Assembly: GCA_943357985.1 (NCBI GenBank)
Contig: CALRGR010000005.1
Location: 1-60,447 of the forward strand
DNA length: 60,447 nt
Direction: 5' to 3'
Source of the DNA: Candidatus Levybacteria bacterium GW2011_GWA1_37_16
Lineage (GTDB): Bacteria > Patescibacteriota > Microgenomatia > Levybacterales > UBA12049
Numbering within the stretch: position 1 is the stretch's first letter; each line of letters starts with the position of its first letter. A model generated the notes under the pieces. It was not told the origin of the DNA, ran no database searches, and saw nothing but the letters and a program-made list of their open reading frames with translations. The translations under genes were made by a program, and so were the position numbers. Below, in pieces: positions 3,901 through 54,284 of the stretch.

Positions 3901-4872
3901 TTATTTTCTTAGACGGGATTTTAATTTAGCCTTAACTATCAATAACGACGATATAACTATAAGGCTTATAAGTAATATCTGTACCGGAGCTCCAATAAAG
4001 CGGGTGGTTTGGGTCAAGGCTGGGCTATGTTCGTAAAAAGTAAGGATTAATGTGGCTGTATAGGGTCCCAGCAGGAAAGTCTCCGGCCAAGCAGCGGTAA
4101 TAGATCTGGATGTGTTAGCGAGGATATTTGTTTTTTCTAGATCTACCCTGCCTACAGTCTGCCCAAATAGGTTTTTAATAAGAATATATCCTGATGTTGA
4201 TATAAATTGTTCTCCCTGGTTTGAGGTTTTAACCGAAAACTCAATAGGGCCTTTGTCTTTGAAGAATGATGAATTAAATTCGTTTATTTTGACTTGAGGC
4301 TTGGTAATCTGGCCTACGGTAAGAAGTACATTTGTTGCTACTGCAGTAATAATTTGAGATTTGTTCTTCTGAGCAGCATCCGTAGCAGGGGATGATGTGA
4401 ATAATAATGAAAAGTAATAGTCTGATAATGTTTCATCTTGAGTAATGTCTATGCGCAAGCTTAATTCTTTTTGTTGTTTTGGTCCGAGCTCTATAGAAGA
4501 AATTTCTTGATCTTTATCGAATACCTTAATTTTTTGAAATATGAGCGGATCTTTTAGATTAAGTTCACCACTTTTTAAATATCTTACCTGTCCATTCTCA
4601 TTGTCAGATTGAGTGAAGGGCTTAAAGCTAATATTAAAAGTTTCAGTTTGATCTGTTTGATTTTTGATTATAATGGGTGTTTTCAGGCTAACAGGGGCAG
4701 TTGCACGAATTTTGATAATAGGAGGATAAACCCCCAGTGAAAATGCAGATGCGTCTGCTTTCTGTGGAAATACTACCAATACTACCAATATTATCAATAC
4801 CACCAATGCCCCAATTTTAAATTCAAAATTTTTAATTTTTAATGAATTTTTAATGTTTAAATTTTTAGACAT
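3901..4872 (-). CDS. Cell-surface protein of unknown function with N-terminal signal/anchor and C-terminal TM anchor plus basic tail
   Basis: 323-aa ORF. N-terminal hydrophobic segment IGALVVLIILVVLVVF. C-terminus is ...APVQILLISLIVISSLLIVKAKLKSRLRK. The middle is beta-rich with alternating polar/hydrophobic residues. A DUF916/DUF3324-like architecture is only a guess. Confidence 0.55.
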   Translation of the reverse strand: MSKNLNIKNSLKIKNFEFKIGALVVLIILVVLVVFPQKADASAFSLGVYPPIIKIRATAPVSLKTPIIIKNQTDQTETFNISFKPFTQSDNENGQVRYLKSGELNLKDPLIFQKIKVFDKDQEISSIELGPKQQKELSLRIDITQDETLSDYYFSLLFTSSPATDAAQKNKSQIITAVATNVLLTVGQITKPQVKINEFNSSFFKDKGPIEFSVKTSNQGEQFISTSGYILIKNLFGQTVGRVDLEKTNILANTSRSITAAWPETFLLGPYTATLILTFYEHSPALTQTTRFIGAPVQILLISLIVISSLLIVKAKLKSRLRK

Positions 4873-5717: not shown

Positions 5718-8303
5718 ATGAAACCGTATAATCCCTCTGAAGTCGAGAAGAAGTGGCAAAATGTTTGGGAGGAAACAAAAATTTACTCTCCCAACCTTGA
5801 TAGTGCAAAAAAACCTTTTTATAACCTCATGATGTTTCCTTATCCGTCTGCTGAAGGAATGCACGTTGGGAATATGTACGCTTTTACTGGCGCAGATATC
5901 TATGGCAGGTTCCAAAGAATGCAGGGGTATGACGTTTTTGAGCCCATTGGACTTGACGGATTTGGAATTCATTCTGAAAATTATGCAATAAAAGTGGGTA
6001 AGCACCCGGCAGAGCAGGCCAAAATTTCGGAAGAAAACTTCTATCGACAGCTCCGCTCTATTGGAAATTCTTATGAATGGACAAGAACTATTGAAACTTA
6101 TAAACCGGAATATTACAAATGGACGCAATGGCTTTTTATACAACTTTTCAAGGCTGGATTGGCATATAAAAAGAAAGCGCCTGTTAATTTCTGTCCTAAG
6201 GATCTAACAGTTTTGGCTGATGAGCAGGTAATTGATGGTAAATGTGAACGTTGCGGTTCTGTAGTTGAAAAAAGAGAGCTTGAGCAATGGTTTTTCAAGA
6301 TAACTGATTATGCCGAGAAATTGCTTAGTAATATCCCAGAGCTAGATTGGTCAGAAAAGGTCAAAGTTGCGCAGAAGAACTGGATTGGAAAAAGCGAGGG
6401 CGCAAGGATTCGTTTTGTCATCCTGAGTGAAGCGAAGGACCTACCTGCCTCGCAGCAAGGCGGGGATTCTTCGGCCATGCTTCAGAATGACAACTCAATT
6501 GAGGTATTTACAACCCGTCCAGATACTTTGTTTGGTGCGACATTTTTAGTTATTTCACCGGAACTTGCAAAAAAGTGGCTTGATGTTGGTTGGAAAGCTC
6601 CTACAGGGGTTGGGAAATATATCGAGGAGGCTCTTGTAAAAAGAACATTGATAGAAGAAAACACAGATAAAACGGGAGTTTTCTCGGGAATTTACGCAAT
6701 AAATCCTGTAAATCAAGAGAAAATCCCGATTTGGGTAGCTAATTATGTTCTTGCTGGTTATGGAACAGGCGCAATTATGGCAGTTCCTGCGCATGACCCG
6801 CGGGATTTTGAGTTTGCAAAAAAGTTTGATCTGCAAGTAAAGACTGTCATCCTGAGTGAAACGAAGGATCTACCTGCCTCGCAGCAAGGCGGGGATTCTT
6901 CGGCCATGTCTCAGAATGACAAAATGATTGAGGTTTATGTCGGAGAAGGGGAAATTATTAATTCAGGTGATTGGAATGGCTGGAAGACGCCTGAAAGTAT
7001 TTCAAAAGTCATAAAATGGTTGGAAAAGAAGGCAATTGGTAAAAGAGAAGTTAATTACCATTTAAGAGACTGGTTGATATCGCGCCAAAGATATTGGGGG
7101 CCTCCAATTCCAATGATTGATTGTCCAAAGTGCGGTTGGCAGCCAGTTGCCGAAGCTGATCTGCCTGTAGTTTTGCCGGAACTTGAGGACTTTAAGCCGG
7201 AAGGGAATGGAAAGTCTCCGCTTGCAAATATAGACACTTTTATAAATACCAAATGTCCTAATTGTGATGGTCCTGCAAAAAGGGAGACAGACGTCTCCGA
7301 CACCTTTTTGGACAGTGCATGGTACTTTTTCCGCTATGCCTGCACTGATATAGAAAGTAGTGCTTTTGATAGGGAAAGGCTAAAAAAATGGTTGCCGGTG
7401 AATATGTATATTGGCGGAGCAGAACACTCAGTGCTACACCTTTTATATTCACGGTTTATAGCAATGGTACTGGCTGATTTGAAATTTACGGATTTTGAAG
7501 AACCTTTCAAGAGATTCTACGCGCACGGACTGATCGTAAAAGATGGTGCCAAGATGAGCAAAAGCCGCGGAAATGTGATTATTCCGGATAAATACATAGC
7601 TAAATTCGGCGCAGATACACTCAGATGCTACCTAATGTTCCTTGGTCCTTTTTCAGCAGGCGGTGACTTTAGGGACACAGGAATTGAAGGAATGAATAGA
7701 TTTCTAAAAAGGGTTTGGAAGCTTTGCTCGGCGGTATTAAGTAGTAAGTATCAAGTATCAAGTACAGAAAATACTAAAGAGCTTGATACGGCAATGAATA
7801 AGACGATTAAAAAAGTGACAGAAGATATAGAAAATCTTAGATATAATACCGCGCTGGCGACCTTGATGGAGTATTATAACGTGCTTTCCGAGTTTTATAC
7901 TAAATACAAAATACTCGATACTAAATACTGCAAAACTTTTGTTTTGCTTCTGGCTCCTTTTGCCCCGCATATGACAGAAGAGCTGTATCAGCAATTGACA
8001 ATTGACAATTTACAATTTACTAATAAAGGCAAGAAAGATAGTCAATCATTTAATTCTATTCATCTTGAATCTTGGCCGAGTTTTGATGAGAAATCATTAG
8101 AAGAGTCTGAAGTAAATATTGCAGTTTCTGTAAATGGTAAGACACGAGACGTGATAAAGATCGAAAAGTCAAAAGTCGAAAGTCAAAAGTTTGTTGAGCA
8201 GTTGGCCAAAGAGAGTGAGAATGTAAAAAAGCACCTGCAAGGAAAGAAGATTTTAAAGACAGTTTACGTGCAGGGAAAAATAATAAATTTTGTTATAGAT
8301 TAA
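5718..8303 (+). CDS. leuS: Leucine--tRNA ligase
   Basis: 861 aa. Class I motifs are present: PYPSAEGMHVGN (HIGH-type) and KMSKSRGN. The editing-domain motif TTRPDT and overall LeuRS collinearity are also present. Confidence 0.97.
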   Translation: MKPYNPSEVEKKWQNVWEETKIYSPNLDSAKKPFYNLMMFPYPSAEGMHVGNMYAFTGADIYGRFQRMQGYDVFEPIGLDGFGIHSENYAIKVGKHPAEQAKISEENFYRQLRSIGNSYEWTRTIETYKPEYYKWTQWLFIQLFKAGLAYKKKAPVNFCPKDLTVLADEQVIDGKCERCGSVVEKRELEQWFFKITDYAEKLLSNIPELDWSEKVKVAQKNWIGKSEGARIRFVILSEAKDLPASQQGGDSSAMLQNDNSIEVFTTRPDTLFGATFLVISPELAKKWLDVGWKAPTGVGKYIEEALVKRTLIEENTDKTGVFSGIYAINPVNQEKIPIWVANYVLAGYGTGAIMAVPAHDPRDFEFAKKFDLQVKTVILSETKDLPASQQGGDSSAMSQNDKMIEVYVGEGEIINSGDWNGWKTPESISKVIKWLEKKAIGKREVNYHLRDWLISRQRYWGPPIPMIDCPKCGWQPVAEADLPVVLPELEDFKPEGNGKSPLANIDTFINTKCPNCDGPAKRETDVSDTFLDSAWYFFRYACTDIESSAFDRERLKKWLPVNMYIGGAEHSVLHLLYSRFIAMVLADLKFTDFEEPFKRFYAHGLIVKDGAKMSKSRGNVIIPDKYIAKFGADTLRCYLMFLGPFSAGGDFRDTGIEGMNRFLKRVWKLCSAVLSSKYQVSSTENTKELDTAMNKTIKKVTEDIENLRYNTALATLMEYYNVLSEFYTKYKILDTKYCKTFVLLLAPFAPHMTEELYQQLTIDNLQFTNKGKKDSQSFNSIHLESWPSFDEKSLEESEVNIAVSVNGKTRDVIKIEKSKVESQKFVEQLAKESENVKKHLQGKKILKTVYVQGKIINFVID
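6417..6491 (+). repeat. 75-bp GC-rich nested-palindromic element inserted in frame in leuS (copy 1; encodes VILSEAKDLPASQQGGDSSAMLQND)
   Basis: Sequence: gtcatcctgagtgaagcgaaggacctacctgcctcgcagcaaggcggggattcttcggccatgcttcagaatgac. The central hairpin is cctgcc...ggcggg. The outer arms gtcatcctgag / cttcagaatgac are imperfectly inverted. Confidence 0.9.
6846..6920 (+). repeat. 75-bp GC-rich nested-palindromic element inserted in frame in leuS (copy 2; encodes VILSETKDLPASQQGGDSSAMSQND)
   Basis: Differs from copy 1 at 4 of 75 positions by my alignment. It lies 429 bp downstream of copy 1 in the same orientation and frame. Confidence 0.9.
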
Positions 8304-8311
8304 GCTTTTAA

Positions 8312-8950
8312 ATGGAGTACCAGAAGCTAGCTGAAACATATTTTCCTTTTATACGACGTCACTTTTTGCCACTAGCCTTGGGATTTGTTGGAATGATGTT
8401 CTTGAGTTATGGTTTGATATCTTTATTAGCTTCTAAAAATTCACAAAATCAAGTAGTCTTTGAGCCTGGTCCTTCGGAAACCTCAGGATCTTTAGCAAGT
8501 GCTACTTTATCTCAGCAGATTGTCGTAGACATTGAAGGAGCTGTTGAACGACCTGGTGTTTATAAACTTAAGTCTGATGCAAGAATTCAAGATGTTCTTA
8601 TATCTTCCGGCGGACTTTCCGCAAAAGCAGATAGATCTTGGGTAAGTAAGAATCTCAACCTTGCTTCAAAATTAACTGACGGAGCAAAGCTCTATATACC
8701 AACGCAGGGAGAAAATTACACTTCGGGAAGTTCGGTCCTCAGTGCTCAAGCAACTCAAAATTCGAGTGGTCTTATAAACATCAACAATTCCACTGCAGGT
8801 GAATTGGATAGTCTTCCTGGTATAGGAGTGGTTACTGCAGGCAAAATCATAAATGGTAGGCCATATGCGGCCTTAAATGACCTGTTGGAAAAGAAGATAG
8901 TAGGTAGTAAGGTATTTTTACAGATTAAGGATAAAATAAGCATCTATTAA
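8312..8950 (+). CDS. comEA: ComEA-type DNA-binding competence protein (TM anchor, SLBB-like, C-terminal helix-hairpin-helix)
   Basis: VDIEGAVERPGVYKLKSDARIQDVL (SLBB-like) and NINNSTAGELDSLPGIGVVTAGKIINGRPY (HhH). Confidence 0.85.
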   Translation: MEYQKLAETYFPFIRRHFLPLALGFVGMMFLSYGLISLLASKNSQNQVVFEPGPSETSGSLASATLSQQIVVDIEGAVERPGVYKLKSDARIQDVLISSGGLSAKADRSWVSKNLNLASKLTDGAKLYIPTQGENYTSGSSVLSAQATQNSSGLININNSTAGELDSLPGIGVVTAGKIINGRPYAALNDLLEKKIVGSKVFLQIKDKISIY

Positions 8951-27232: not shown

Positions 27233-27345
27233 TTACTAATTTCAAATTTCTAACCTGCCTCGCGGCAAGGCGGGTCAAATCTAAATGTTCAAAATTTAAA
27301 ACATTAAAAATTGAATAAAAATTAAGAATTAAAAATTATAAATTA
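27233..27345 (+). repeat. Dispersed AT-rich intergenic repeat, copy A (with 21-bp GC hairpin 27254-27274)
   Basis: Sequence: aatttctaa-cctgcctcgcggcaaggcggg-tcaaatctaaatgtt...acattaaaaattgaataaaaattaagaattaaaaattataaatta. It aligns with copies at 31324-31425 and 32546-32659. Confidence 0.85.
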
Positions 27346-31666: not shown

Positions 31667-32545
31667 ATGAATAAAATTCGTAAAGCCGTAATACCCGCTG
31701 CCGGATTTGGAACCAGATTTCTTCCTCAAACAAAAGCAATGCCTAAAGAAATGCTTCCGATAGTTGATAAGCCAGTTATTCAATATGTTGTTGAAGAAGT
31801 TGTTGCATCAGGAATTAAAGATATAATTGTTGTAACGGGAGCTAACAAAAGAGCTATTGAGGACCACTTTGATACACCAAATGAAGATCTGGTGCAAAAT
31901 CTTCTTGCAGGGGACAAACAAAAACTTCTTGATGCAATTAGAGACCTTGCAGAAATGGCTAATTTTATTTATGTTCGCCAAAAGGGTGCTTACGGAAACG
32001 GAACGCCGGTACTTTCTGCTGAGCCTGTAATAGAAAATGAACCTTTTGCTGTTATTTGGGGAGATGAGTTTATTTATTCAGAGCCGCCAAGGTTAAAGCA
32101 AATGATTGATGTGCATGAGAAATACGGAGGAGTTGTAATCTCAGGAGTAAAAATTGAAAACAAAGCTGACTTAAGCAGGTATGGAATTGCAGATATTTCG
32201 CCTGTTGAGGGAAATGTCTATAAAATTAATGCAATTGTAGAAAAGCCTAAGCCTGAAGATGCACCTTCAAATCTTGCAACCCATGGTGCTTACATTTTGC
32301 CGCCTGATATATTCCCTGCCCTAAAGAATTTAAAACCCGGAAGGGGTGGGGAAATATGGTTGACCGACGCAATAAATCTACTAAGGGAGCAGGGAGTTCC
32401 AATTTACGCGGTTGAAATTGAAAACGGAAAATACTACGACACGGGGAATAAGATTGAATATATGAAAACAGTTGTAGAACTTGCGTTAAAACATCCGGAA
32501 ATAAATGGCGAATTTAGAGAATTCCTCAAAGGGTTAGAGCTTTAA
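31667..32545 (+). CDS. galU: UTP--glucose-1-phosphate uridylyltransferase
   Basis: KAVIPAAGFGTRFLPQTKAMPKEMLPIVDKPVIQYVVEE and VEKPKPEDAPSNLATHGAYIL. Confidence 0.92.
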   Translation: MNKIRKAVIPAAGFGTRFLPQTKAMPKEMLPIVDKPVIQYVVEEVVASGIKDIIVVTGANKRAIEDHFDTPNEDLVQNLLAGDKQKLLDAIRDLAEMANFIYVRQKGAYGNGTPVLSAEPVIENEPFAVIWGDEFIYSEPPRLKQMIDVHEKYGGVVISGVKIENKADLSRYGIADISPVEGNVYKINAIVEKPKPEDAPSNLATHGAYILPPDIFPALKNLKPGRGGEIWLTDAINLLREQGVPIYAVEIENGKYYDTGNKIEYMKTVVELALKHPEINGEFREFLKGLEL

Positions 32546-32659
32546 TTTCTAATTTCTAACCTGCCTCGCGGCAAGGCGGGTCAAATTCAAATGTTTAAAC
32601 ATTTAGAAATTAAAACATTAAAAATTCATTAAAAATTGAAAATTAAGAATTTTAAATTT
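32546..32659 (+). repeat. Dispersed AT-rich intergenic repeat, copy C (with GC hairpin 32560-32580)
   Basis: Sequence: taatttctaatttctaa-cctgcctcgcggcaaggcggg-tcaaattcaaatgttt...aaaattgaaaattaagaatt. Confidence 0.85.
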
Positions 32660-43172: not shown

Positions 43173-44354
43173 ATGTTTGATAAATTCTTTAGTATGTTTT
43201 CGTACGATATTGGCATTGACTTGGGTACTTCAAACACGCTCGTTTATGTTAGAGGAAAAGGAATTGTAATACGGGAGCCGTCCGTTGTTGCAATGCATAA
43301 AAAAACTAAAAAAATTGTGGCAATTGGAACAGAGGCAAAAAAAATGGTGGGAAAAACTCCTGCAACAATTATTACGATAAGACCACTAAGAGGTGGAGTA
43401 ATTTCTGATTTTGATGCAACAACAGCCATGATTGCTCATTATATTCAGGCAGTTCATGAAGTCTCAAATGTAATTCCGGTGCGTTTTGCAAAGCCTAAAG
43501 TTGTTGTAGGAATTCCATCATCTGTTACAGAAGTTGAAAGACGAGCGGTTTGGGAGTCAGCACTCAATTCGGGAGCGCGTGCCGCTTATTTAATTGAAGA
43601 ACCAATGGCGGCAGCAATTGGAGAAGGAGTTTCTGTATTTGCTCCAACTGGCGTTATGATTGTGGATATTGGCGGTGGGACTACGGAAATTGCAATTATT
43701 TCTTTGGGCGGAATTGTAATAAGTAAAAGTCTTAAGGTTGCCGGAGATGACATGGATGCTGCAATTGTTCACTACATAAGACTACGTCATGGGCTTTTAA
43801 TTGGGGAAAGAACTGCAGAAGATTTAAAGATTACAATTGGCAGTGCATATGAAAGTAAGTCAAAAACCAAAAGTTCCTCCTTCGCTAAAGCTTCGAAGGA
43901 CGAGCAAAAGTTAAAAGTTTCGGAAATTCTGGACGAAAAAGTTTTAGAAGAGGACGGGTTTGTTACTATTGAAGACCTGCCTGCCGGCAGGCAGGATAAG
44001 ATGGCGGTTGTTCGCGGTCGTGATATAGAAACGGGACTTCCAAAAAGTTTAAGAGTAACGGAGATTGAAATAAGAGAGGCATTGTCTCCTGTATTGTCGC
44101 AAATTATTCAGGGAATTGTGGAAGTTTTGGAAGAAGCGCCACCGGAACTTACATCTGATATTTTGGAGCACGGAATTTTACTAACAGGTGGTGGTTCAAT
44201 GTTGCCGGGATTTAATCATTTAATAGTTGATAGAACAAAAATCCCAGTCATAAAATCTGAGGATCCTCTAACTTCCGTTGCGCGTGGAACAGGAAAAGTT
44301 TTGGAAGACGATGCGCTGCTCCAAAGAGTCAAAGTCATCGGCGGCCTCAGGTAA
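43173..44354 (+). CDS. mreB: MreB paralogue heading the mreBCD-mrdA operon, with a ~50-aa insertion
   Basis: IGIDLGTSNTLVY, EEPMAAAIGEG, IVDIGGGTTE and GILLTGGGSMLPGF. It is 393 aa against 338 aa for the other copy. The extra segment is ESKSKTKSSSFAKASKDEQKLKVSEILDEKVLEEDGFVTIEDLPAGRQDKMAV. Confidence 0.9.
   Translation: MFDKFFSMFSYDIGIDLGTSNTLVYVRGKGIVIREPSVVAMHKKTKKIVAIGTEAKKMVGKTPATIITIRPLRGGVISDFDATTAMIAHYIQAVHEVSNVIPVRFAKPKVVVGIPSSVTEVERRAVWESALNSGARAAYLIEEPMAAAIGEGVSVFAPTGVMIVDIGGGTTEIAIISLGGIVISKSLKVAGDDMDAAIVHYIRLRHGLLIGERTAEDLKITIGSAYESKSKTKSSSFAKASKDEQKLKVSEILDEKVLEEDGFVTIEDLPAGRQDKMAVVRGRDIETGLPKSLRVTEIEIREALSPVLSQIIQGIVEVLEEAPPELTSDILEHGILLTGGGSMLPGFNHLIVDRTKIPVIKSEDPLTSVARGTGKVLEDDALLQRVKVIGGLR
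43976..43995. repeat. Perfect 20-bp palindrome CCTGCCTGCCGGCAGGCAGG inside the mreB insertion
   Basis: The sequence is its own reverse complement. A second hairpin, TCCTTCG ctaaagctt CGAAGGA, lies at 43878-43900. Confidence 0.95.
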
Positions 44355-48868: not shown

Positions 48869-49540
48869 TTATTGAGTGAATTTGAAGGTGGAGAGAATTT
48901 GGTTAAAGAGGGCTAATCCAATATTATTTTTTGAAGTTCCAGAGCCATAAATAATCATATACGCGTTCCCTAGGTGCTCTATGGGACCGACTTGAACTAA
49001 TGTCTCGTCGATAGAAACTGTTTTATTGACGGTTTGGTTAGCCAACTGTATTGTTGTTATCGGCTGGGACTGAAGATTGAACTCTAGCTTTGAATTAACA
49101 CCTTCCTTATACGAAAATATTTGTACTCCATATGATGGTTGACCGAGAAGTGACCATTCATCTACATTTACCGATCCACCAATTCCTTGATAAGTCCTGC
49201 TGTCTTGTTGGAGAGCAGGAGTTATATCTATTGGATATTTAATTGAATAACCAAAATTCGGACTGATGTAGGTTTTCCAGTTGGCGGTTGGGTCAATTGT
49301 TGGTGTTGGGGTTGCTGTCTCTTGAACTGTTGAGATTTGCTGGTTTGAGATAGTAGCTTTATTTCTACCCGAAACTAGAAAATATCCTATAAAGGCTATT
49401 GCTGTGCAAAACGAAACAATACCCATTCCAATTCCAATTGTTTTCCAAAAACTTCTATTAGAATTTTCAGGAGCAATCGGCGGAACTTGAGCCGGTTGTT
49501 GTTCGGTCTCAATATTTTGCGGTGGGATTTGGTCTTCCAT
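48869..49540 (-). CDS. N-terminally anchored extracytoplasmic hypothetical protein
   Basis: TM segment IGIGMGIVSFCTAIAFIGYFLV. The motif ANWKTYISPNFGYSIKYP also occurs in CDS 53739-54284 as [18 protein letters not shown]. Confidence 0.55.
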   Translation of the reverse strand: MEDQIPPQNIETEQQPAQVPPIAPENSNRSFWKTIGIGMGIVSFCTAIAFIGYFLVSGRNKATISNQQISTVQETATPTPTIDPTANWKTYISPNFGYSIKYPIDITPALQQDSRTYQGIGGSVNVDEWSLLGQPSYGVQIFSYKEGVNSKLEFNLQSQPITTIQLANQTVNKTVSIDETLVQVGPIEHLGNAYMIIYGSGTSKNNIGLALFNQILSTFKFTQ

Positions 49541-49560: not shown

Positions 49561-50649
49561 ATGATTATGCAAGAGAGGAATTATTATTTGGGGTTTGCGA
49601 TGGCTAATGGAATAGGGCCGAAGACGTTTGCATCGCTTCTGGAAAATTTTAACTCTGCGGGAAAAGCATGGAACGCCACTCAGTCAGACCTCGAACCAAT
49701 ACTAAAGCCCGCACTTACTTCTAAATTTATAAATTTCCGCAAGGAGTTTGATTTTGAAAAATATAAAACCCAGCTGGAAAAACAGAAAATTTCTTTTGTC
49801 GCCTTGTCGGATAAAGGATACCTACAACTTCTAAGACAAATTCCAAACCCACCAATTGTGTTGTATGTTAAAGGCAATGCTGATTTGTTAAGTTCGAAAC
49901 TCAACAAAATTGCAATTGTAGGGACAAGACATATCACAAGTTACGGGCGGCAAATAACAGAAATGTTCGCAAGGGATTTGGCTGGGTCTGGACTTATAAT
50001 AGTATCCGGTATGGCGCTTGGTGTAGACGGCGTAGCACACCAATCAACTATCAATGTAGGCGGAAAAACTATTGCAGTTTTGGGCAATGGCGTGGATTTG
50101 CCATATCCATATGAAAATCAAAAACTTTATGAAGAAATTTTGGATAGTGGTGGAGCCATTATCTCTGAATTTCCTCCTGGAATGCCGCCAAATGTCGGAT
50201 CTTTTCCGGCAAGAAACAGAATAGTTGCAGGAATGTCTCTGGGCGTTCTGGTCACAGAAGGAGCAAGTGATAGTGGTTCACTTATTACAGCAAAGCTTGC
50301 TTTGGGCTTTGGTCGTCCGGTTTTTGCAGTTCCTGGACCAATTACATCACAATTATCAAAAGCGCCGTTGGATCTAATCCGCAAAGGTGCAAAACTTGTA
50401 ACATCTGCTGCAGATATTTTGGAGGAGCTAAATGTTAAAAGTTCACCCTCAAAAAACAAATCTTCGGCAAAAGGCGAGACAAAGGAAGAAAATTTAATTC
50501 TTAAAATTTTAGAAAATGAGAGTTTGGGGTTTGATGAAATCTCGCGTCTTGCCAAAATTGATTCTTCGAAACTCGCAGGCATTTTATCCATGATGGAAAT
50601 AAAAGGAATAATTAAGGATTCGGGCGGAAGATTTTCCATCTCCTCTTGA
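49561..50649 (+). CDS. dprA: DNA-processing protein DprA (Smf)
   Basis: IAIVGTRHITSYG, SGMALGVDGVAHQ and AVLGNGVDLPYPYEN, with a C-terminal winged-helix segment. Confidence 0.92.
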   Translation: MIMQERNYYLGFAMANGIGPKTFASLLENFNSAGKAWNATQSDLEPILKPALTSKFINFRKEFDFEKYKTQLEKQKISFVALSDKGYLQLLRQIPNPPIVLYVKGNADLLSSKLNKIAIVGTRHITSYGRQITEMFARDLAGSGLIIVSGMALGVDGVAHQSTINVGGKTIAVLGNGVDLPYPYENQKLYEEILDSGGAIISEFPPGMPPNVGSFPARNRIVAGMSLGVLVTEGASDSGSLITAKLALGFGRPVFAVPGPITSQLSKAPLDLIRKGAKLVTSAADILEELNVKSSPSKNKSSAKGETKEENLILKILENESLGFDEISRLAKIDSSKLAGILSMMEIKGIIKDSGGRFSISS

Positions 50650-50683: not shown

Positions 50684-52693
50684 ATGAAATTACTAATAGT
50701 AGAATCACCAACAAAAGCCAGAACTATTGGCAGATTTTTAGGAAAGGATTATTCAATAGTTGCCTCCATGGGGCATATTATGGATTTGCCAAAAAGTAAG
50801 CTTGGGGTGGATACGGAGCATGATTTCAAGCCTGCATTTGAAGTGGTTGGGGATAAGAAACAGATTTTGGCAGAACTTAAAAGAGAAGCCAAAAAAGCAG
50901 ATGGAATATTTTTTGCAACTGATCCTGACCGCGAAGGAGAAGCAATTGCAGCTCATGTTAAAGAGGCTTTGGGAGTAAAGGGAAAAGTTGAAAGAATTGT
51001 TTTCCATGAAATTACAAAAGAAGCAATTGAAGAAGCTTTTAAAAATCCCCGTGATATAGATGAGAATTTGGTTGATGCGCAAACCGCAAGGCGGGTGCTT
51101 GACAGGTTGGTCGGTTACAAGCTTTCTCCTCTTCTTTGGCAAAAAGTTAGACGCGGTTTGTCTGCGGGCCGTGTTCAATCAGTTGCCTTGCGTTTGATAG
51201 TTGAAAGAGAAAGGGAAATTGAGAAATTTAAAAAAACTCTTTATTTTACAATTGAGGCAAATCTTAAAAAAGATAAAGATGAAGTTACTTTTGAACTTGC
51301 AGAAATAAATAATGTAAAAATTGAAAAACAGGAAAAGTTTGCACTTTATGACGGTGACTACACTATTACAAAAACTGTTATCGATAATGAAATTAAAGCT
51401 CAGGAAATTTTAGATGACATAAAAGGAAAAACATTTAAAGTATCAGACGTTGTGCAAAAAGAAATGCGTCGTTCTCCTTTAGCTCCATATACAACATCAA
51501 CCCTTCAGCAGGATGCATCAAGAAGATTAGGTCTTGCTGGAAGACGCACAATGAGTCTTGCGCAAAAACTTTACGAAGAAGGACTTATTACTTATCACAG
51601 AACAGATTCTGTTGTTATGGCAAAGTCTGCGCAATTTTCAATAATTGATTTTGTAAAAAAACAGTTCGGTGAAAAATATGTGCCGGATAAGCCGCGCTTT
51701 TATGCTACAAAACAAAAGCTGGCACAAGAAGCACATGAGGCAATTAGACCTACAAAGGTTGGGGTTTCCGCGGCGCAAGTAGCAGTGGATTTAGGTGGAC
51801 AGTATTCAAAACTTTATGATTTGATTTGGAAAAGGGCAGTAGCATCACAAATGGCAGATGCGATTACTGAGTCTACGGTTGTGCTCGTTAAGACTTCGGG
51901 TTCTCAAAAATCTTATCTATTTAAGGCAAATGGCTCGGTTCTTGTTTTTGAAGGTTTTCTAAAAGTAAATCCGCAAGCATTGCAGGATAATAAGTTACCT
52001 CAGTTTGCCACGGGAGAAGAGTTGGATCTGGCGAGTGCGGATAAAGAGTTTCATGAAACTCCACCCCCACCGCGTTATAATGACGCCTCGCTTATAAAAG
52101 TGTTGGAAGAAAAGGGAATTGGTAGGCCGTCAACCTATGCAACAATTGTTGGCACAATTGAAGCTCGCCAGTACATAGAAAGAAAAGAAGGTAGGTTTAC
52201 TCCCACATATGTTGGAATTGCGGTAAATGACTTTTTGGTTTCAAATTTTTCAAGTATTGATGACATTCCATTTACCGCCGGAATGGAAGATGATTTGGAT
52301 GCAGTGGCAACAGGGGAGAAAAAATGGACACCTATGATTGCAGATTTTTATAGACCTTTTGAGAAAAAACTTGAGGAGGTTAAGGGAGCGGAGCGGGTTA
52401 AAATTGCTACCGAAAAAACAGATCAGAAGTGTCCAAAAGACGGGGGATTTTTGGTAATTAGGGTTGGGAAGTTTGGTAAATTTTTATCCTGCGAAAACTT
52501 TCCAAAGTGTAATTTTAGCAAGCCATTTGTTGAAGAAACGCAATTTAAGTGTCCAAAAGATGGAGCAATAATTGTGGTCAAAAAGACTAGAAAAGGCCGT
52601 ACCTTCTATGGTTGCAGTAGTTACCCCGCCTGCACATTTGCGGCTTGGAAGTTGACAGATTTAAAGAAAGAGCAACTCACTCAAAAAATTTGA
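50684..52693 (+). CDS. topA: DNA topoisomerase I
   Basis: TOPRIM MKLLIVESPTKA...ATDPDREGEAIA. The active-site region is GLITYHRTDS. There are two C-terminal C4 zinc ribbons (CPKDG...C..FPKC and CPKDG...GCSSYPAC). Confidence 0.96.
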   Translation: MKLLIVESPTKARTIGRFLGKDYSIVASMGHIMDLPKSKLGVDTEHDFKPAFEVVGDKKQILAELKREAKKADGIFFATDPDREGEAIAAHVKEALGVKGKVERIVFHEITKEAIEEAFKNPRDIDENLVDAQTARRVLDRLVGYKLSPLLWQKVRRGLSAGRVQSVALRLIVEREREIEKFKKTLYFTIEANLKKDKDEVTFELAEINNVKIEKQEKFALYDGDYTITKTVIDNEIKAQEILDDIKGKTFKVSDVVQKEMRRSPLAPYTTSTLQQDASRRLGLAGRRTMSLAQKLYEEGLITYHRTDSVVMAKSAQFSIIDFVKKQFGEKYVPDKPRFYATKQKLAQEAHEAIRPTKVGVSAAQVAVDLGGQYSKLYDLIWKRAVASQMADAITESTVVLVKTSGSQKSYLFKANGSVLVFEGFLKVNPQALQDNKLPQFATGEELDLASADKEFHETPPPPRYNDASLIKVLEEKGIGRPSTYATIVGTIEARQYIERKEGRFTPTYVGIAVNDFLVSNFSSIDDIPFTAGMEDDLDAVATGEKKWTPMIADFYRPFEKKLEEVKGAERVKIATEKTDQKCPKDGGFLVIRVGKFGKFLSCENFPKCNFSKPFVEETQFKCPKDGAIIVVKKTRKGRTFYGCSSYPACTFAAWKLTDLKKEQLTQKI

Positions 52694-52725
52694 CTTGAAG
52701 CCTGAGCAGCGCTCTAGCGGGCAGG

Positions 52726-52796
52726 CCAAAATGTGATTTTCCGTATGGAAGATTGAAGATATTAAGAAATTCACTTCAAAATATCCCGCATCGTAA
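52726..52796 (+). pseudogene. Decayed extra copy (A) of the topA C-terminal zinc-ribbon tail
   Basis: ccaaaatgtgatttt is identical to 15 nt of copy B. With a 1-nt frameshift it reads PKCDF..VWKIEDIKKFTSKYPAS-stop. Confidence 0.6.
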
Positions 52797-52843
52797 TTAC
52801 TATAATTGCACTTGATAATCCATTTATCTGTATAATCTAGGAC

Positions 52844-53578
52844 ATGAAAGAATCTATGTGCAATGTCCCGGCTGTCATTCTTGCTGGAGGAATGGGAAAA
52901 AGATTGGGTTCTTTAACTGCAGAAACTCCAAAGCCTCTTATTAGAGTTGCTAATTCTCCAATTATCGTACGTCAGTTGGCAGAGTTAAGATTAGCTGGTG
53001 TGAATACTATCTTGGTATCAACTGGTTATAGGGCAGAACTTTTAATGGAAGAGCTTTTGGATGGATCAAATTTTGGCGTTGATATTTATTATTCTCATGA
53101 GGATACTCCGCTTGGTCGTGGGGGAGGAATTAAAAAAGCACTCTCTGGGATTGGTGGAAATTGGGAGTATGCAATAGTTAGAAATGGAGACAATTTAACA
53201 TTTAATCTTGATTTTGAAAATCTTCTGGAATTCCACAAGAAAAACAATGCATTAGTTACCGCTGTTGTTGCAAGAAGAAGCGCAGCGGAAAGTTTAGGTT
53301 ATGGATTGATAGAAACGGATGAGAATCTTAGAATCAAAAGTTTTAAAGAAAAACCCAAAAGCATAGAAGGAGATTCTAGCGTTTTAATAAATGCTGGTAT
53401 TTATATTATCTCAAGAAAAGTAGTTGGTTTATTTCCAGATATTGGAGATCATGAGGTTGGACTTTTTCCAAGTCTTGCATCAGATGGGAATCTTTATGGT
53501 TATCCAATTGAGGAATGGTTAACTGTTGATACTCCTGAAGATTTAGAGCGAGCAGAAGATATCATTAAGCGTAAATAG
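52844..53578 (+). CDS. Sugar-phosphate nucleotidyltransferase (NTP_transferase family)
   Basis: AVILAGGMGKRLGSLTAETPKPLIRV and INAGIYII; 244 aa. TGTATAAT lies 7 nt before the ATG. Confidence 0.8.
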   Translation: MKESMCNVPAVILAGGMGKRLGSLTAETPKPLIRVANSPIIVRQLAELRLAGVNTILVSTGYRAELLMEELLDGSNFGVDIYYSHEDTPLGRGGGIKKALSGIGGNWEYAIVRNGDNLTFNLDFENLLEFHKKNNALVTAVVARRSAAESLGYGLIETDENLRIKSFKEKPKSIEGDSSVLINAGIYIISRKVVGLFPDIGDHEVGLFPSLASDGNLYGYPIEEWLTVDTPEDLERAEDIIKRK

Positions 53579-53624
53579 TTTACTTCGTAAGCTTTATAGT
53601 TGAAAGAATTTAATCAAAAGTCTT

Positions 53625-53768
53625 GTCGGAAAGAGCAGGAAAGGCCGAACCTTCTATGGTTGCAGTAATTACCCAAAATGTGATTTTGCCGCTTGGAATT
53701 TAAAAGACCTAAAAAAAGAGGATCTCAAAAAACCTACTTCAGGGGTTAGTAAAGTTAATAGTAGATAA
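53625..53768 (+). pseudogene. Extra copy (B) of the topA 3' end
   Basis: It translates as ..[47 protein letters not shown]-stop, against the topA end [37 protein letters not shown]. The 35-nt stretch aaaggccg.accttctatggttgcagta.ttaccc has 2 mismatches. Confidence 0.75.
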
Positions 53769-54284
53769 CACCGCTTTAACAGTTTGCGAGTTTTTATTGG
53801 CCGGTTTATATGCTTTAGCTAGGACAACTTCTGTAATACTATCATCCTTTGCTCCATTGCTGAAAGGAGCCCATATTTCATCTCCGTTATCCTCTACTAT
53901 ATTGCAGATATCATAGTTTTTTTCTTGTATCTTGAACGTTTTGTGATACTTTGGGTCACAGCCTCCACCAAATCCCATCGGACCCCATTCTATAGTAATT
54001 TCTCCCTCTTTGCCGCTCAGAACTGCTGTGTTAATCTCTTTTGGATTATCAACGACTCGATTGTTTAAGGTATGACTTTCTTTGACGGTCCAAGTGGGTG
54101 GGTATTGTATGGTGACGGATTTTATGGGATTTGTATACGTTTTCCAGTTTGTGGTAGAGATGGGAGGTTGAGAAAAAGTCAAAAATAAGAGCAAAAGACC
54201 CACTAGAGCAATGGCAGAAAGGAAAATAAATTTAAAGAACCAATCATTTCTTGGATGAATTTTTCTTTTGGACTTTGTCTTCAT
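53739..54284 (-). CDS. N-terminally anchored extracytoplasmic hypothetical protein
   Basis: 181 aa with TM segment [21 protein letters not shown] and the TNWKTYTNP...IQYPPTW motif. Confidence 0.55.

Follow-up and report, generated by a model that had tools for sequence, protein, structure and literature searches.

The DNA analysed here, which we call the window, is a 60,447-nt stretch of Candidatus Levybacteria bacterium GW2011_GWA1_37_16, an uncultured groundwater bacterium, and includes a 16S rRNA gene. On its plus strand the topoisomerase gene topA (50684–52693, 669 aa) is followed by two further copies of its own 3′ end, copy A (52726–52796) and copy B (53621–53768), with a gene for a sugar-phosphate nucleotidyltransferase (NT, 52844–53578, 244 aa) between them. 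The encoded TopA carries a Toprim domain (PF01751, E = 1.3e-22), a Topoisom_bac domain (PF01131, E = 1.3e-121) and two matches to Zn_ribbon_Top1 (PF01396). An initial annotation had read this arrangement as the footprint of integrations into the 3′ end of topA, with NT as cargo. Comparison with relatives bears out that incoming DNA brought replacement ends and pushed older ends downstream, and that there were at least two such events. The layering differs from the one first proposed: copy A appears to have been cut off by a previously unrecognised, cargo-less insert of 101 nt (52625–52725), which supplies the live end of topA.

The window was compared with about 60 related loci (~0.5 Mb in all), whose labels begin with L (L003, L025, L119 and so on) or P (P0122 and so on). 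Synteny was compared across 25 genome relatives, and about 50 topA genes were compared block by block around the insertion point. An nhmmer profile was built from Levybacteria topA 3′ regions, and positions on it are quoted as profile positions. A degenerate search of metagenomes for PACTFAAW[KN] yielded 33 topA ends. Pfam scans for recombinases and transposases covered 37 open reading frames (ORFs) of the window and the 10 largest cargo ORFs of relatives. The gene order common to Levybacteria relatives is dprA, topA, a variable stretch of 0–4.5 kb, hyp149 on the minus strand, DUF5667 and SpoU. The three-copy layout is also present on further contigs of ENA assembly ERZ1305449, and the sequence is base-for-base the same in Logan assemblies of two other runs. 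This agreement of independent assemblies rules out an assembly artefact. No empty-site polymorphism was found within the strain, as contigs with identical proteins all matched the window.

The three ends are related beyond chance. A repeat search detected a direct repeat of 110 nt with 75% identity between 52570–52679 and 53618–53727. The 35-nt stretch with two mismatches that had been pointed out between the live gene and copy B was recovered by BLASTN as a 33/35 core (E = 2e-11), and the nhmmer profile matched copy B at 53621–53720 with E = 2.6e-20; the similarity is thus significant at the nucleotide level. Copies A and B share 15 identical nucleotides (52726–52740, CCAAAATGTGATTTT, and 53673–53687), as had also been noted. 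A third copy of this 15-mer, 87% identical, at 52502–52516 in the first zinc ribbon, is a paralogous ribbon. Orthologous tails in relatives add further support for all three ends, as described below.

The live end leaves the PKCDF-type sequence exactly after TAC (..Asn/Ser-Tyr), and PKCDF-type sequence resumes 101 nt further on, in copy A. The DNA in between (52625–52725, plus strand) has homologous inserts at the same nucleotide in relatives, and we refer to it as a type 1 tail-replacement mini-cassette. It starts with CCCGCCTGCACATTTGCGGC / CCCGCCTGC, codes for PACTFAAWKLTDLKKEQLTQKI followed by TGA, contains a GC-rich hairpin at 52700–52725 and ends in GGGCAGG. The C-terminus of live TopA reads ...GCSSY|PACTFAAWKLTDLKKEQLTQKI*, its last 22 codons and stop codon (52625–52693) being those of the cassette. 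The junctions are TAC|CCCGCC on the left and GGCAGG|CCAAAATG on the right. The insertion point falls between TAC and CC (Tyr-Pro codons), inside the last zinc ribbon, and there is no target duplication beyond the ambiguous CC. In this way the last zinc ligand, a new basic tail and a stop codon, as well as a hairpin, all come from the cassette. Among cassettes, the hairpin at the right end (GCCTGAAC..GTTCTGGC) is conserved, with one compensatory pair. Just 5′ of the insertion point lies a conserved block of 33 nt, block U (52592–52624), which pairs with 53640–53672 (U′) in copy B, where the 15-nt core follows at 53673–53687.

At least 11 lineages, dispersed on the TopA tree, carry a cassette followed by a displaced tail; the cassettes measure 71–102 nt and are of two types. 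Type 1 occurs in the window, L025, L032, L086, L097, L099, L106/L121 and L112 (98–102 nt where measured), and type 2 in L109, L111 and L119 (71 or 100 nt; right end GGCGAGGCTCGCC..GGCGG). Both types use the same target nucleotide, with different right ends. The displaced tail begins at profile position 151/152 in at least 12 loci; the sole exception is copy B of the window, which starts at position 99. Since many lineages end in plain PACTF, the PACTF motif alone is not diagnostic of a cassette. Empty target sites are found in L123, L125, L126 and L003, where topA is directly followed by convergent genes. The carriers are polyphyletic on the TopA tree. Within the shallow clade of the window, the uninserted P0122, P0123/4 and P0125 interleave with the carriers window, L086/P0129 and P0127, so that repeated precise gain or precise loss is needed.

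The sisters of the carrier L025 (L014, L022 and L023, ~83% nucleotide identity) have an uninterrupted PNCDF end. The flanks of L025 are lineage-typical, with 0.80–0.83 identity to the sisters up to both junctions, and its displaced tail, PNCDFAAWKLEDINKKKEPQVPN*, is of the sisters' tail type. Identity between cassettes exceeds that between their hosts (86% vs 61% for L025/L112, 93% vs 75% for L109/L111). The cassette of the window is most similar to that of L086 (81%), yet close relatives carry no cassette at all. Just before the site, 8 of 9 automatically classed carriers have the codon TAC, compared with 5 of 18 uninserted genes (Fisher p = 0.004, phylogeny ignored). TTAC precedes 10 of 11 cassettes (TTAT in L025), a tetranucleotide that is also a codon constraint (Asn-Tyr). 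All cassette copies in the related loci lie in topA. Two ends are chimeric: L003 combines PACTF with NLRDLKK..., and P0132 combines PAC, DFAAW, KLTDLKK and TLPK. As read from their sequences, these ends show recombination between stacked tails.

On this evidence the cassettes are most likely a mobile family aimed at a single nucleotide of topA and served by a putative trans-acting site-specific recombinase or transposase. The junctions have no more than CC in common, which speaks against a tyrosine recombinase whose overlap would be 6–8 bp; a serine recombinase or a single-strand transposase of the HUH type would fit. A fuller proposal, to which we give somewhat less than an even chance, is that an undescribed non-autonomous family of 71–102 nt homes to the nucleotide between the third and fourth cysteine of the last ribbon. 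Each insertion would swap the last zinc ligand and the basic tail of TopA, the old tails would serve as a recombining reservoir, and the enzyme would act in trans. Such a system could allow rapid change of the tail, for example under inhibitors, or be purely selfish.

Copy B is a dead former topA 3′ end. Its frame is open for 54 codons (53604–53765, stop at 53766–53768) and has no ATG, GTG or TTG start. The first cysteine pair of the ribbon is missing, and only profile positions 15–36 of Pfam Zn_ribbon_Top1 are covered (E = 1.3e-9), with one cysteine pair. The closest TopA proteins (83–86% identical; P0122–P0124) use a live end of the copy B type, ..[KR]DLKKP... In the closest relative, L123, whose TopA body is 86% identical, this tail (tail B) is live and overlaps a convergent 202-aa gene on the minus strand, which is followed by hyp149. 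Copy B is 92% identical over 87 nt to the live 3′ end of L123, compared with 78% gene-wide. In the window, a convergent gene of 181 aa (53739–54284, minus strand), for which Pfam gave no match and which has an N-terminal hydrophobic segment by eye, overlaps the end of copy B by 30 nt, mirroring the homologous gene that overlaps live topA in L123. Because the live end of L123 matches copy B above the gene-wide identity and has the same neighbour layout, copy B and the 181-aa gene are, judged by these alignments, the own old topA end of the window lineage in its native context.

Copy A (tail A, plus strand) is a displaced, frameshifted topA end, PKCDF..WKIEDIKKFTSKYPAS*, with its TAA at 52794–52796. 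Taken alone it is weakly matched (nhmmer E = 3.8e-5). Intact orthologues of copy A occur in L119 and L121, where they are followed by the same promoter and NT gene (in L121 the copy-A-type end reads ..CEFAARKLKDIKKFAPQFPTS*), and these intact tails prove copy A to be a topA end. The promoter and leader of NT (52797–52843, plus strand) were identified by alignment with L119 and L121, with TTGATA at 52812–52817 and TATAAT at 52831–52836. The promoter spacer is 13 nt in the window compared with 16 nt in L119 (5965–5995) and L121, which is a deletion of 3 nt. NT may therefore be poorly transcribed here, as far as can be predicted from its promoter. Because of the short spacer, a consensus scan missed this promoter; a scan for promoters and terminators gave nothing above chance.

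The NT gene product (plus strand) matches PF00483 with E = 1.1e-35 and 123.8 bits (cut-off 21.2). It has only two close homologues (74% and 69% identical) among 5.8 billion proteins, the next best being 42% identical, and both are encoded 3′ of a topA tail A, in L119/L120 and L121/L106, whose TopA proteins are ~62–67% identical. Among the 25 genome relatives, topA is never followed by NT. The window, L119 and L121 align collinearly from the first codon of the tail, across the TTGATA/TATAAT promoter, into NT. In both L119 and L121 the 3′ end of the convergent hyp149 directly adjoins the NT stop, at the place where the window has a spacer (53579–53620, plus strand; 42 nt between the NT stop and copy B, delimited by alignment). 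This collinearity identifies tail A plus NT as ordinary chromosome in another Levybacteria lineage and as a probable insert in the window, and it follows from the collinearity that the two would have arrived as one unit. In GC content NT does not differ from the DNA around it, and a composition profile shows nothing foreign, which is consistent with a donor of similar base composition, for example another Levybacterium. The window also encodes a resident NTP_transferase paralogue 20 kb upstream (31667–32545, 292 aa, PF00483, E = 3.5e-30), so that the inserted NT is an extra copy of this enzyme class.

These comparisons modify the initial annotation. The idea of NT as cargo holds in so far as one of the ends brought NT along; copy A is collinear with NT rather than displaced by it. 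Likewise, the reading of both copies as old ends applies to copy B, the own old end, while copy A corresponds to the native end of another lineage. The frameshifts in copy A were correctly recognised.

If the cassette is removed conceptually, tail A, NT and the spacer are flanked by a 48-nt direct repeat (46/48), which consists of block U or U′ with the 15-mer core after each. Such a flanking repeat is the product expected of a single crossover in the conserved block. A circularised fragment or small element could have integrated in Campbell fashion, or the unit could have entered by homology-facilitated illegitimate recombination after DNA uptake. The gene dprA (49561–50649) lies directly 5′ of topA, and there is a ComEA-like gene at 8312–8950 (SLBB and HHH_3 domains); by their predicted functions these genes indicate a capacity for DNA uptake and transformation. 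Copy B starts ~50 nt 5′ of the common insertion point, which is unique among the displaced ends seen. Its displacement therefore looks like a different kind of event, namely recombination in the conserved 48-nt block. In a sliding comparison of the window topA with relatives, identity did not drop towards the 3′ end, and that to L086 even peaks there (0.89), so no donor tract can be delimited.

We read the region as a fossil stack of three generations of topA ends, produced by two different insertions into one hotspot, and estimate the probability of this reading at about 0.6. The comparisons show how the locus is built, which orthologues each tail has, that target sites without an insert exist, that the junction recurs at the exact nucleotide and that the phylogenetic distribution is patchy; from this we infer the direction and order of events and the enzymology. 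The ancestor would have resembled L123, with a topA whose tail B overlapped the convergent gene. In a first event, a segment of ~1 kb consisting of tail A, promoter and NT would have entered from another Levybacteria lineage. Recombination would have taken place in the conserved block at the last zinc-ribbon cysteines (33-nt U plus 15-nt core), which would account for the present 46/48 duplication of this block, and would have left the native end as the dead copy B before the native neighbour gene. In a second event, the 101-nt non-autonomous cassette would have entered between TAC and CC and cut off tail A, which would then have gained its frameshifts.

Several observations weigh against this reading. 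Two orders of events fit the data, as the cassette may have come after the import of NT, or the NT unit may have been placed behind a resident cassette. Block U′ of copy B is identical to L086 (33/33), which fits a host origin but blurs the donor of the NT unit, and the left edge of copy B (~20 nt; at most 16/27 over the first 27 nt) matches every lineage poorly. With respect to the cassette, no further copy and no sign of a dispersed repeat family were found in the 60-kb window, and no autonomous version was found among the related loci. The PACTFAAW pattern gave no match in IMG/VR. Pfam detected no recombinase or transposase in the 37 window ORFs or in the 10 largest cargo ORFs of relatives. 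A possible left-end hairpin is not maintained across cassettes, and its C-G pair lies on a freely varying third codon position. RNA folding of the window cassette was no better than that of shuffled sequences (z = −0.29). The same holds for the L119 cassette, while that of L025 folded better (z = −3.4).

A rival explanation is that no dedicated machinery is needed. One or two ancient accidents would have made the series of new end, hairpin and old end, which then spread by natural transformation and homologous recombination via the conserved flanks, and NT would have entered by homology-facilitated illegitimate recombination. The competence genes of the window (dprA, ComEA-like) would make this feasible, the most conserved blocks directly flank the insert, and the left border of copy B is arbitrary, as for an illegitimate join. 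Moreover, hyp149 of L119 shows the same pattern of a displaced 3′ end, and the chimeric tails speak for active recombination at this place. However, L025 keeps the codons of its lineage at both junctions (GNY TAT on the left, PNCDF..KKKEPQ on the right) with normal identity to its sisters; crossovers would therefore need to fall within 0–4 nt. Two unrelated cassette types also share one exact target nucleotide, and the link between insertion and a preceding TAC indicates a sequence-specific step. We consider this explanation unlikely. More doubtful still is a classical origin, in which the topA 3′ end received one or two islands or prophages with integrase genes through attP × attB recombination, and later deletions took away the integrase and most cargo but spared NT and att remnants. 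The topology is that of e14/icd or of tRNA-gene islands, with the supplied end on the left and the displaced end on the right; relatives provide empty sites, and the 46/48 direct repeat flanks the NT unit if the cassette is ignored. But, in agreement with the initial annotation, no integrase was detected among the 37 window ORFs scanned, nor in the 10 cargo ORFs of relatives. Viral contigs (IMG/VR) gave no match, and in L119 and L121 tail A and NT are ordinary chromosome without element borders. Independent deletions would also not yield the same unit of 98–102 nt or 71 nt with identical right junctions in many lineages. The replacement-end pattern on which the initial annotation had built remains; since no integrase-bearing element was seen in the window or in the ~60 related loci, we treat its integrating element as a proposal about mechanism.

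Three other explanations are contradicted by the data. That the topA end was locally duplicated in tandem and diverged, with a later insertion of NT and without any foreign end, would agree with the tandem orientation of the direct repeats. Yet the tails have separate orthologues (tail B in L123, L086 and L003, tail A in L119 and L121, the cassette in L025, L112 and others), and tails A and B are only ~55% alike beyond the shared 15-mer, which makes this origin very improbable. We give an equally small chance to the idea that copy B is a separate, functional small zinc-ribbon gene, which the initial annotation had itself raised as an objection. Its open frame and Pfam match would allow this, but it lacks a start codon and comprises half a ribbon, its orthologues in relatives are the 3′ ends of full-length topA genes, and no relative has a stand-alone gene there. 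A diversity-generating retroelement (DGR) with a template and variable repeat on the TopA C-terminus was considered because of the ~110-nt repeat at a gene 3′ end in a bacterium of the Candidate Phyla Radiation (CPR), a group in which DGRs are reported to be common. The 27 mismatches are not tied to adenine, however (copy B A10 G7 C5 T5; live end G8 C8 A6 T5), there is no reverse-transcriptase ORF nearby, and the comparisons with relatives account for the copies in another way, so that the probability of a DGR is close to nil.

Insertion between the convergent 3′ ends of topA and hyp149 is not restricted to the window. In L119, a remnant of hyp149 (its last ~34–38 codons; 6732–6833) abuts the NT stop, a divergent full-length hyp149 is found at 7943–8383, and a 347-aa gene lies between the two. 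The remnant is 86% identical to the gene of L121 (2088–2186), compared with 61% to the own full copy of L119. In L121 (300–1360; same population as L106), topA tails of four generations are stacked, and two small genes lie among them. The order is live cassette tail, displaced tail with a GC-rich insertion of 40 nt, DUF5674 gene and 103-aa gene, CEFAVW remnant, tail A and NT; the CEFAVW remnant was also seen in L115. As displaced ends occur on both topA and hyp149, the space between their convergent 3′ ends is a general insertion hotspot. Among the 10 largest cargo ORFs from the variable region of relatives, two carry a PsbP-like domain and the rest are unknown to Pfam. In relatives (L005–L032), minus-strand genes occupy the variable stretch behind topA, and many of them resemble hyp223 of the window. 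The window genes at 48869–49540 and 53739–54284 were grouped with them as a fast-evolving family beside the hotspot. Dead tails in L032 (8190–8240), L106 (reverse strand, ~1335–1419) and L090 (1340–1420) share a small insertion at the same spot, ..GCNGCNTG | T[TC][GT]AGC[GA]AAGCG...GGGA | GAAR.., which suggests a second site-specific or hotspot insertion within the tail.

Palindromes are frequent in these AT-rich genomes. A perfect GC-rich palindrome of 20 nt, CCTGCCTGCCGGCAGGCAGG, is dispersed in them, often in frame so that it codes for ..PAGRQ.. peptides. It occurs at 43976–43995 of the window (within the ORF 43173–44354), in topA of L016 (1764–1783), L090 (1074–1093) and L098 (5676–5695), and at L108:13605–13624, L108:13906–13925 and L119:11325–11345. 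The cassette ends, CCCGCCTGC...GGCGGGCAGG, look like a split copy of a CCTGCCTGCCGGCAGGCAGG-type palindrome, going by their letters. Other GC-rich palindromic insertions stand in frame in topA bodies or ribbons of relatives, namely L032:7940–7975 (GDGASPPSLRSGVSGRG), L021:6590–6625, L103:2590–2625 and 4234–4283, L115:4338–4389 and L086:2766–2811; in L021 and L103, CAAAA[AC]T heptamers stand as repeats on either side of them. Another repeat, CCTGCCTCGC[AG]GCAAGGCGGG, is present four times in the window, at the intergenic positions 27254–27274 and 32560–32580 and at 6444–6464 and 6873–6893. Two of its copies have near-identical flanks (..aatttctaa / tcaaat..), and the other two are embedded in longer repeats, CATCCTGAGTGAAGCGAAGGA...GATTCTTCGGCCATG, ~430 nt apart in the region of the 861-aa ORF 5718–8303.

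Should the cassettes prove to be site-specific mobile elements, no smaller element that protects its target gene by a replacement end would be known, and they would imply a new recombination activity in CPR bacteria, whose mobile DNA is, to our knowledge, poorly characterised. The stacked tails offer a datable record of successive insertions into an essential gene, and they show how one rare cargo gene, NT, passes from lineage to lineage with no vehicle that can be recognised. In about half of the Levybacteria-type topA genes sampled whose end is PACTF, this end may be secondary. In annotation, fragments like copy B are not to be counted as genes. Even with no special machinery at work, the locus would still be a clean natural case of homology-facilitated illegitimate recombination that leaves displaced ends.

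Among known systems, an integron cassette was rejected, as the borders TTAC|CC and CAGG|CC contain no GTTRRRY core and no IntI integrase is present. Genomic islands in the 3′ ends of tRNA and tmRNA genes and their non-autonomous derivatives of the cis-mobilizable element (CIME) type duplicate the 3′ part of a gene at attL and attR, and serial or tandem insertion and mobilisation in trans are known for them. They use identical att cores of 15–60 bp and known tyrosine integrases. In contrast, the junctions of the topA cassette share only CC, and supplied and displaced ends differ from the third nucleotide on. The insertion sequence IS608 (IS200/IS605 family) inserts 3′ of TTAC. The miniature elements derived from this family (PATEs) may resemble the topA cassettes in insertion 3′ of TTAC (10 of 11), lack of target duplication, fixed orientation and a right-end hairpin, and the precise loss or gain implied by the trees is a further likeness. 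PATEs have similar hairpins at both ends; here the right one is conserved, a left one is possible, with one pair that varies freely, and type 2 has a different right end. They also occur as dispersed copies, whereas the 60-kb window holds one cassette and the copies of relatives are confined to topA. Moreover, no TnpA was seen, the spacing differs from that of IS608, and the cassette carries a piece of its target gene. The resemblance to IS608 is therefore only a lead, and we do not claim membership. The palindromic elements of Rickettsia are also small, GC-rich and in frame in coding genes, as are the palindromes in topA bodies described above; they add a peptide inside a protein, whereas the topA cassette replaces the end and brings a stop codon. 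A literature search on topA as an attachment site and on palindromic insertions in CPR genomes returned nothing relevant.

The closest parallel in outcome is the icd gene of Escherichia coli, where icd and the icdC fragment flank prophage e14 and recombination between these ends on excision gives chimeric genes (PMC13626634). As with e14 and phage 21 in icd, a 3′ end for the target arrives with the incoming DNA, so that the gene remains whole, and the old end persists on the far side as a pseudogene fragment. The window accordingly has flanking repeats from the target 3′ end, an intact gene and a displaced dead end, and the chimeric tails of L003 and P0132 parallel the e14/icd chimeras. An integrase beside the att site, as in e14, is lacking: the sole ORF of more than 60 aa between 52694 and 53738 is NT. 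While e14 is a 15-kb prophage with its own recombination system, the inserts described here are either cargo-less and 71–102 nt long or ~1 kb long with one gene, and no recombinase was found for them. They also differ from e14 in their target, the last zinc ribbon of a CPR topA, and in the stacking of several generations of ends. The principle of the replacement end was already known from e14 in icd and from tRNA-gene islands; its form in CPR bacteria, a miniature cassette that lacks cargo and is specific to topA, appears to be new.

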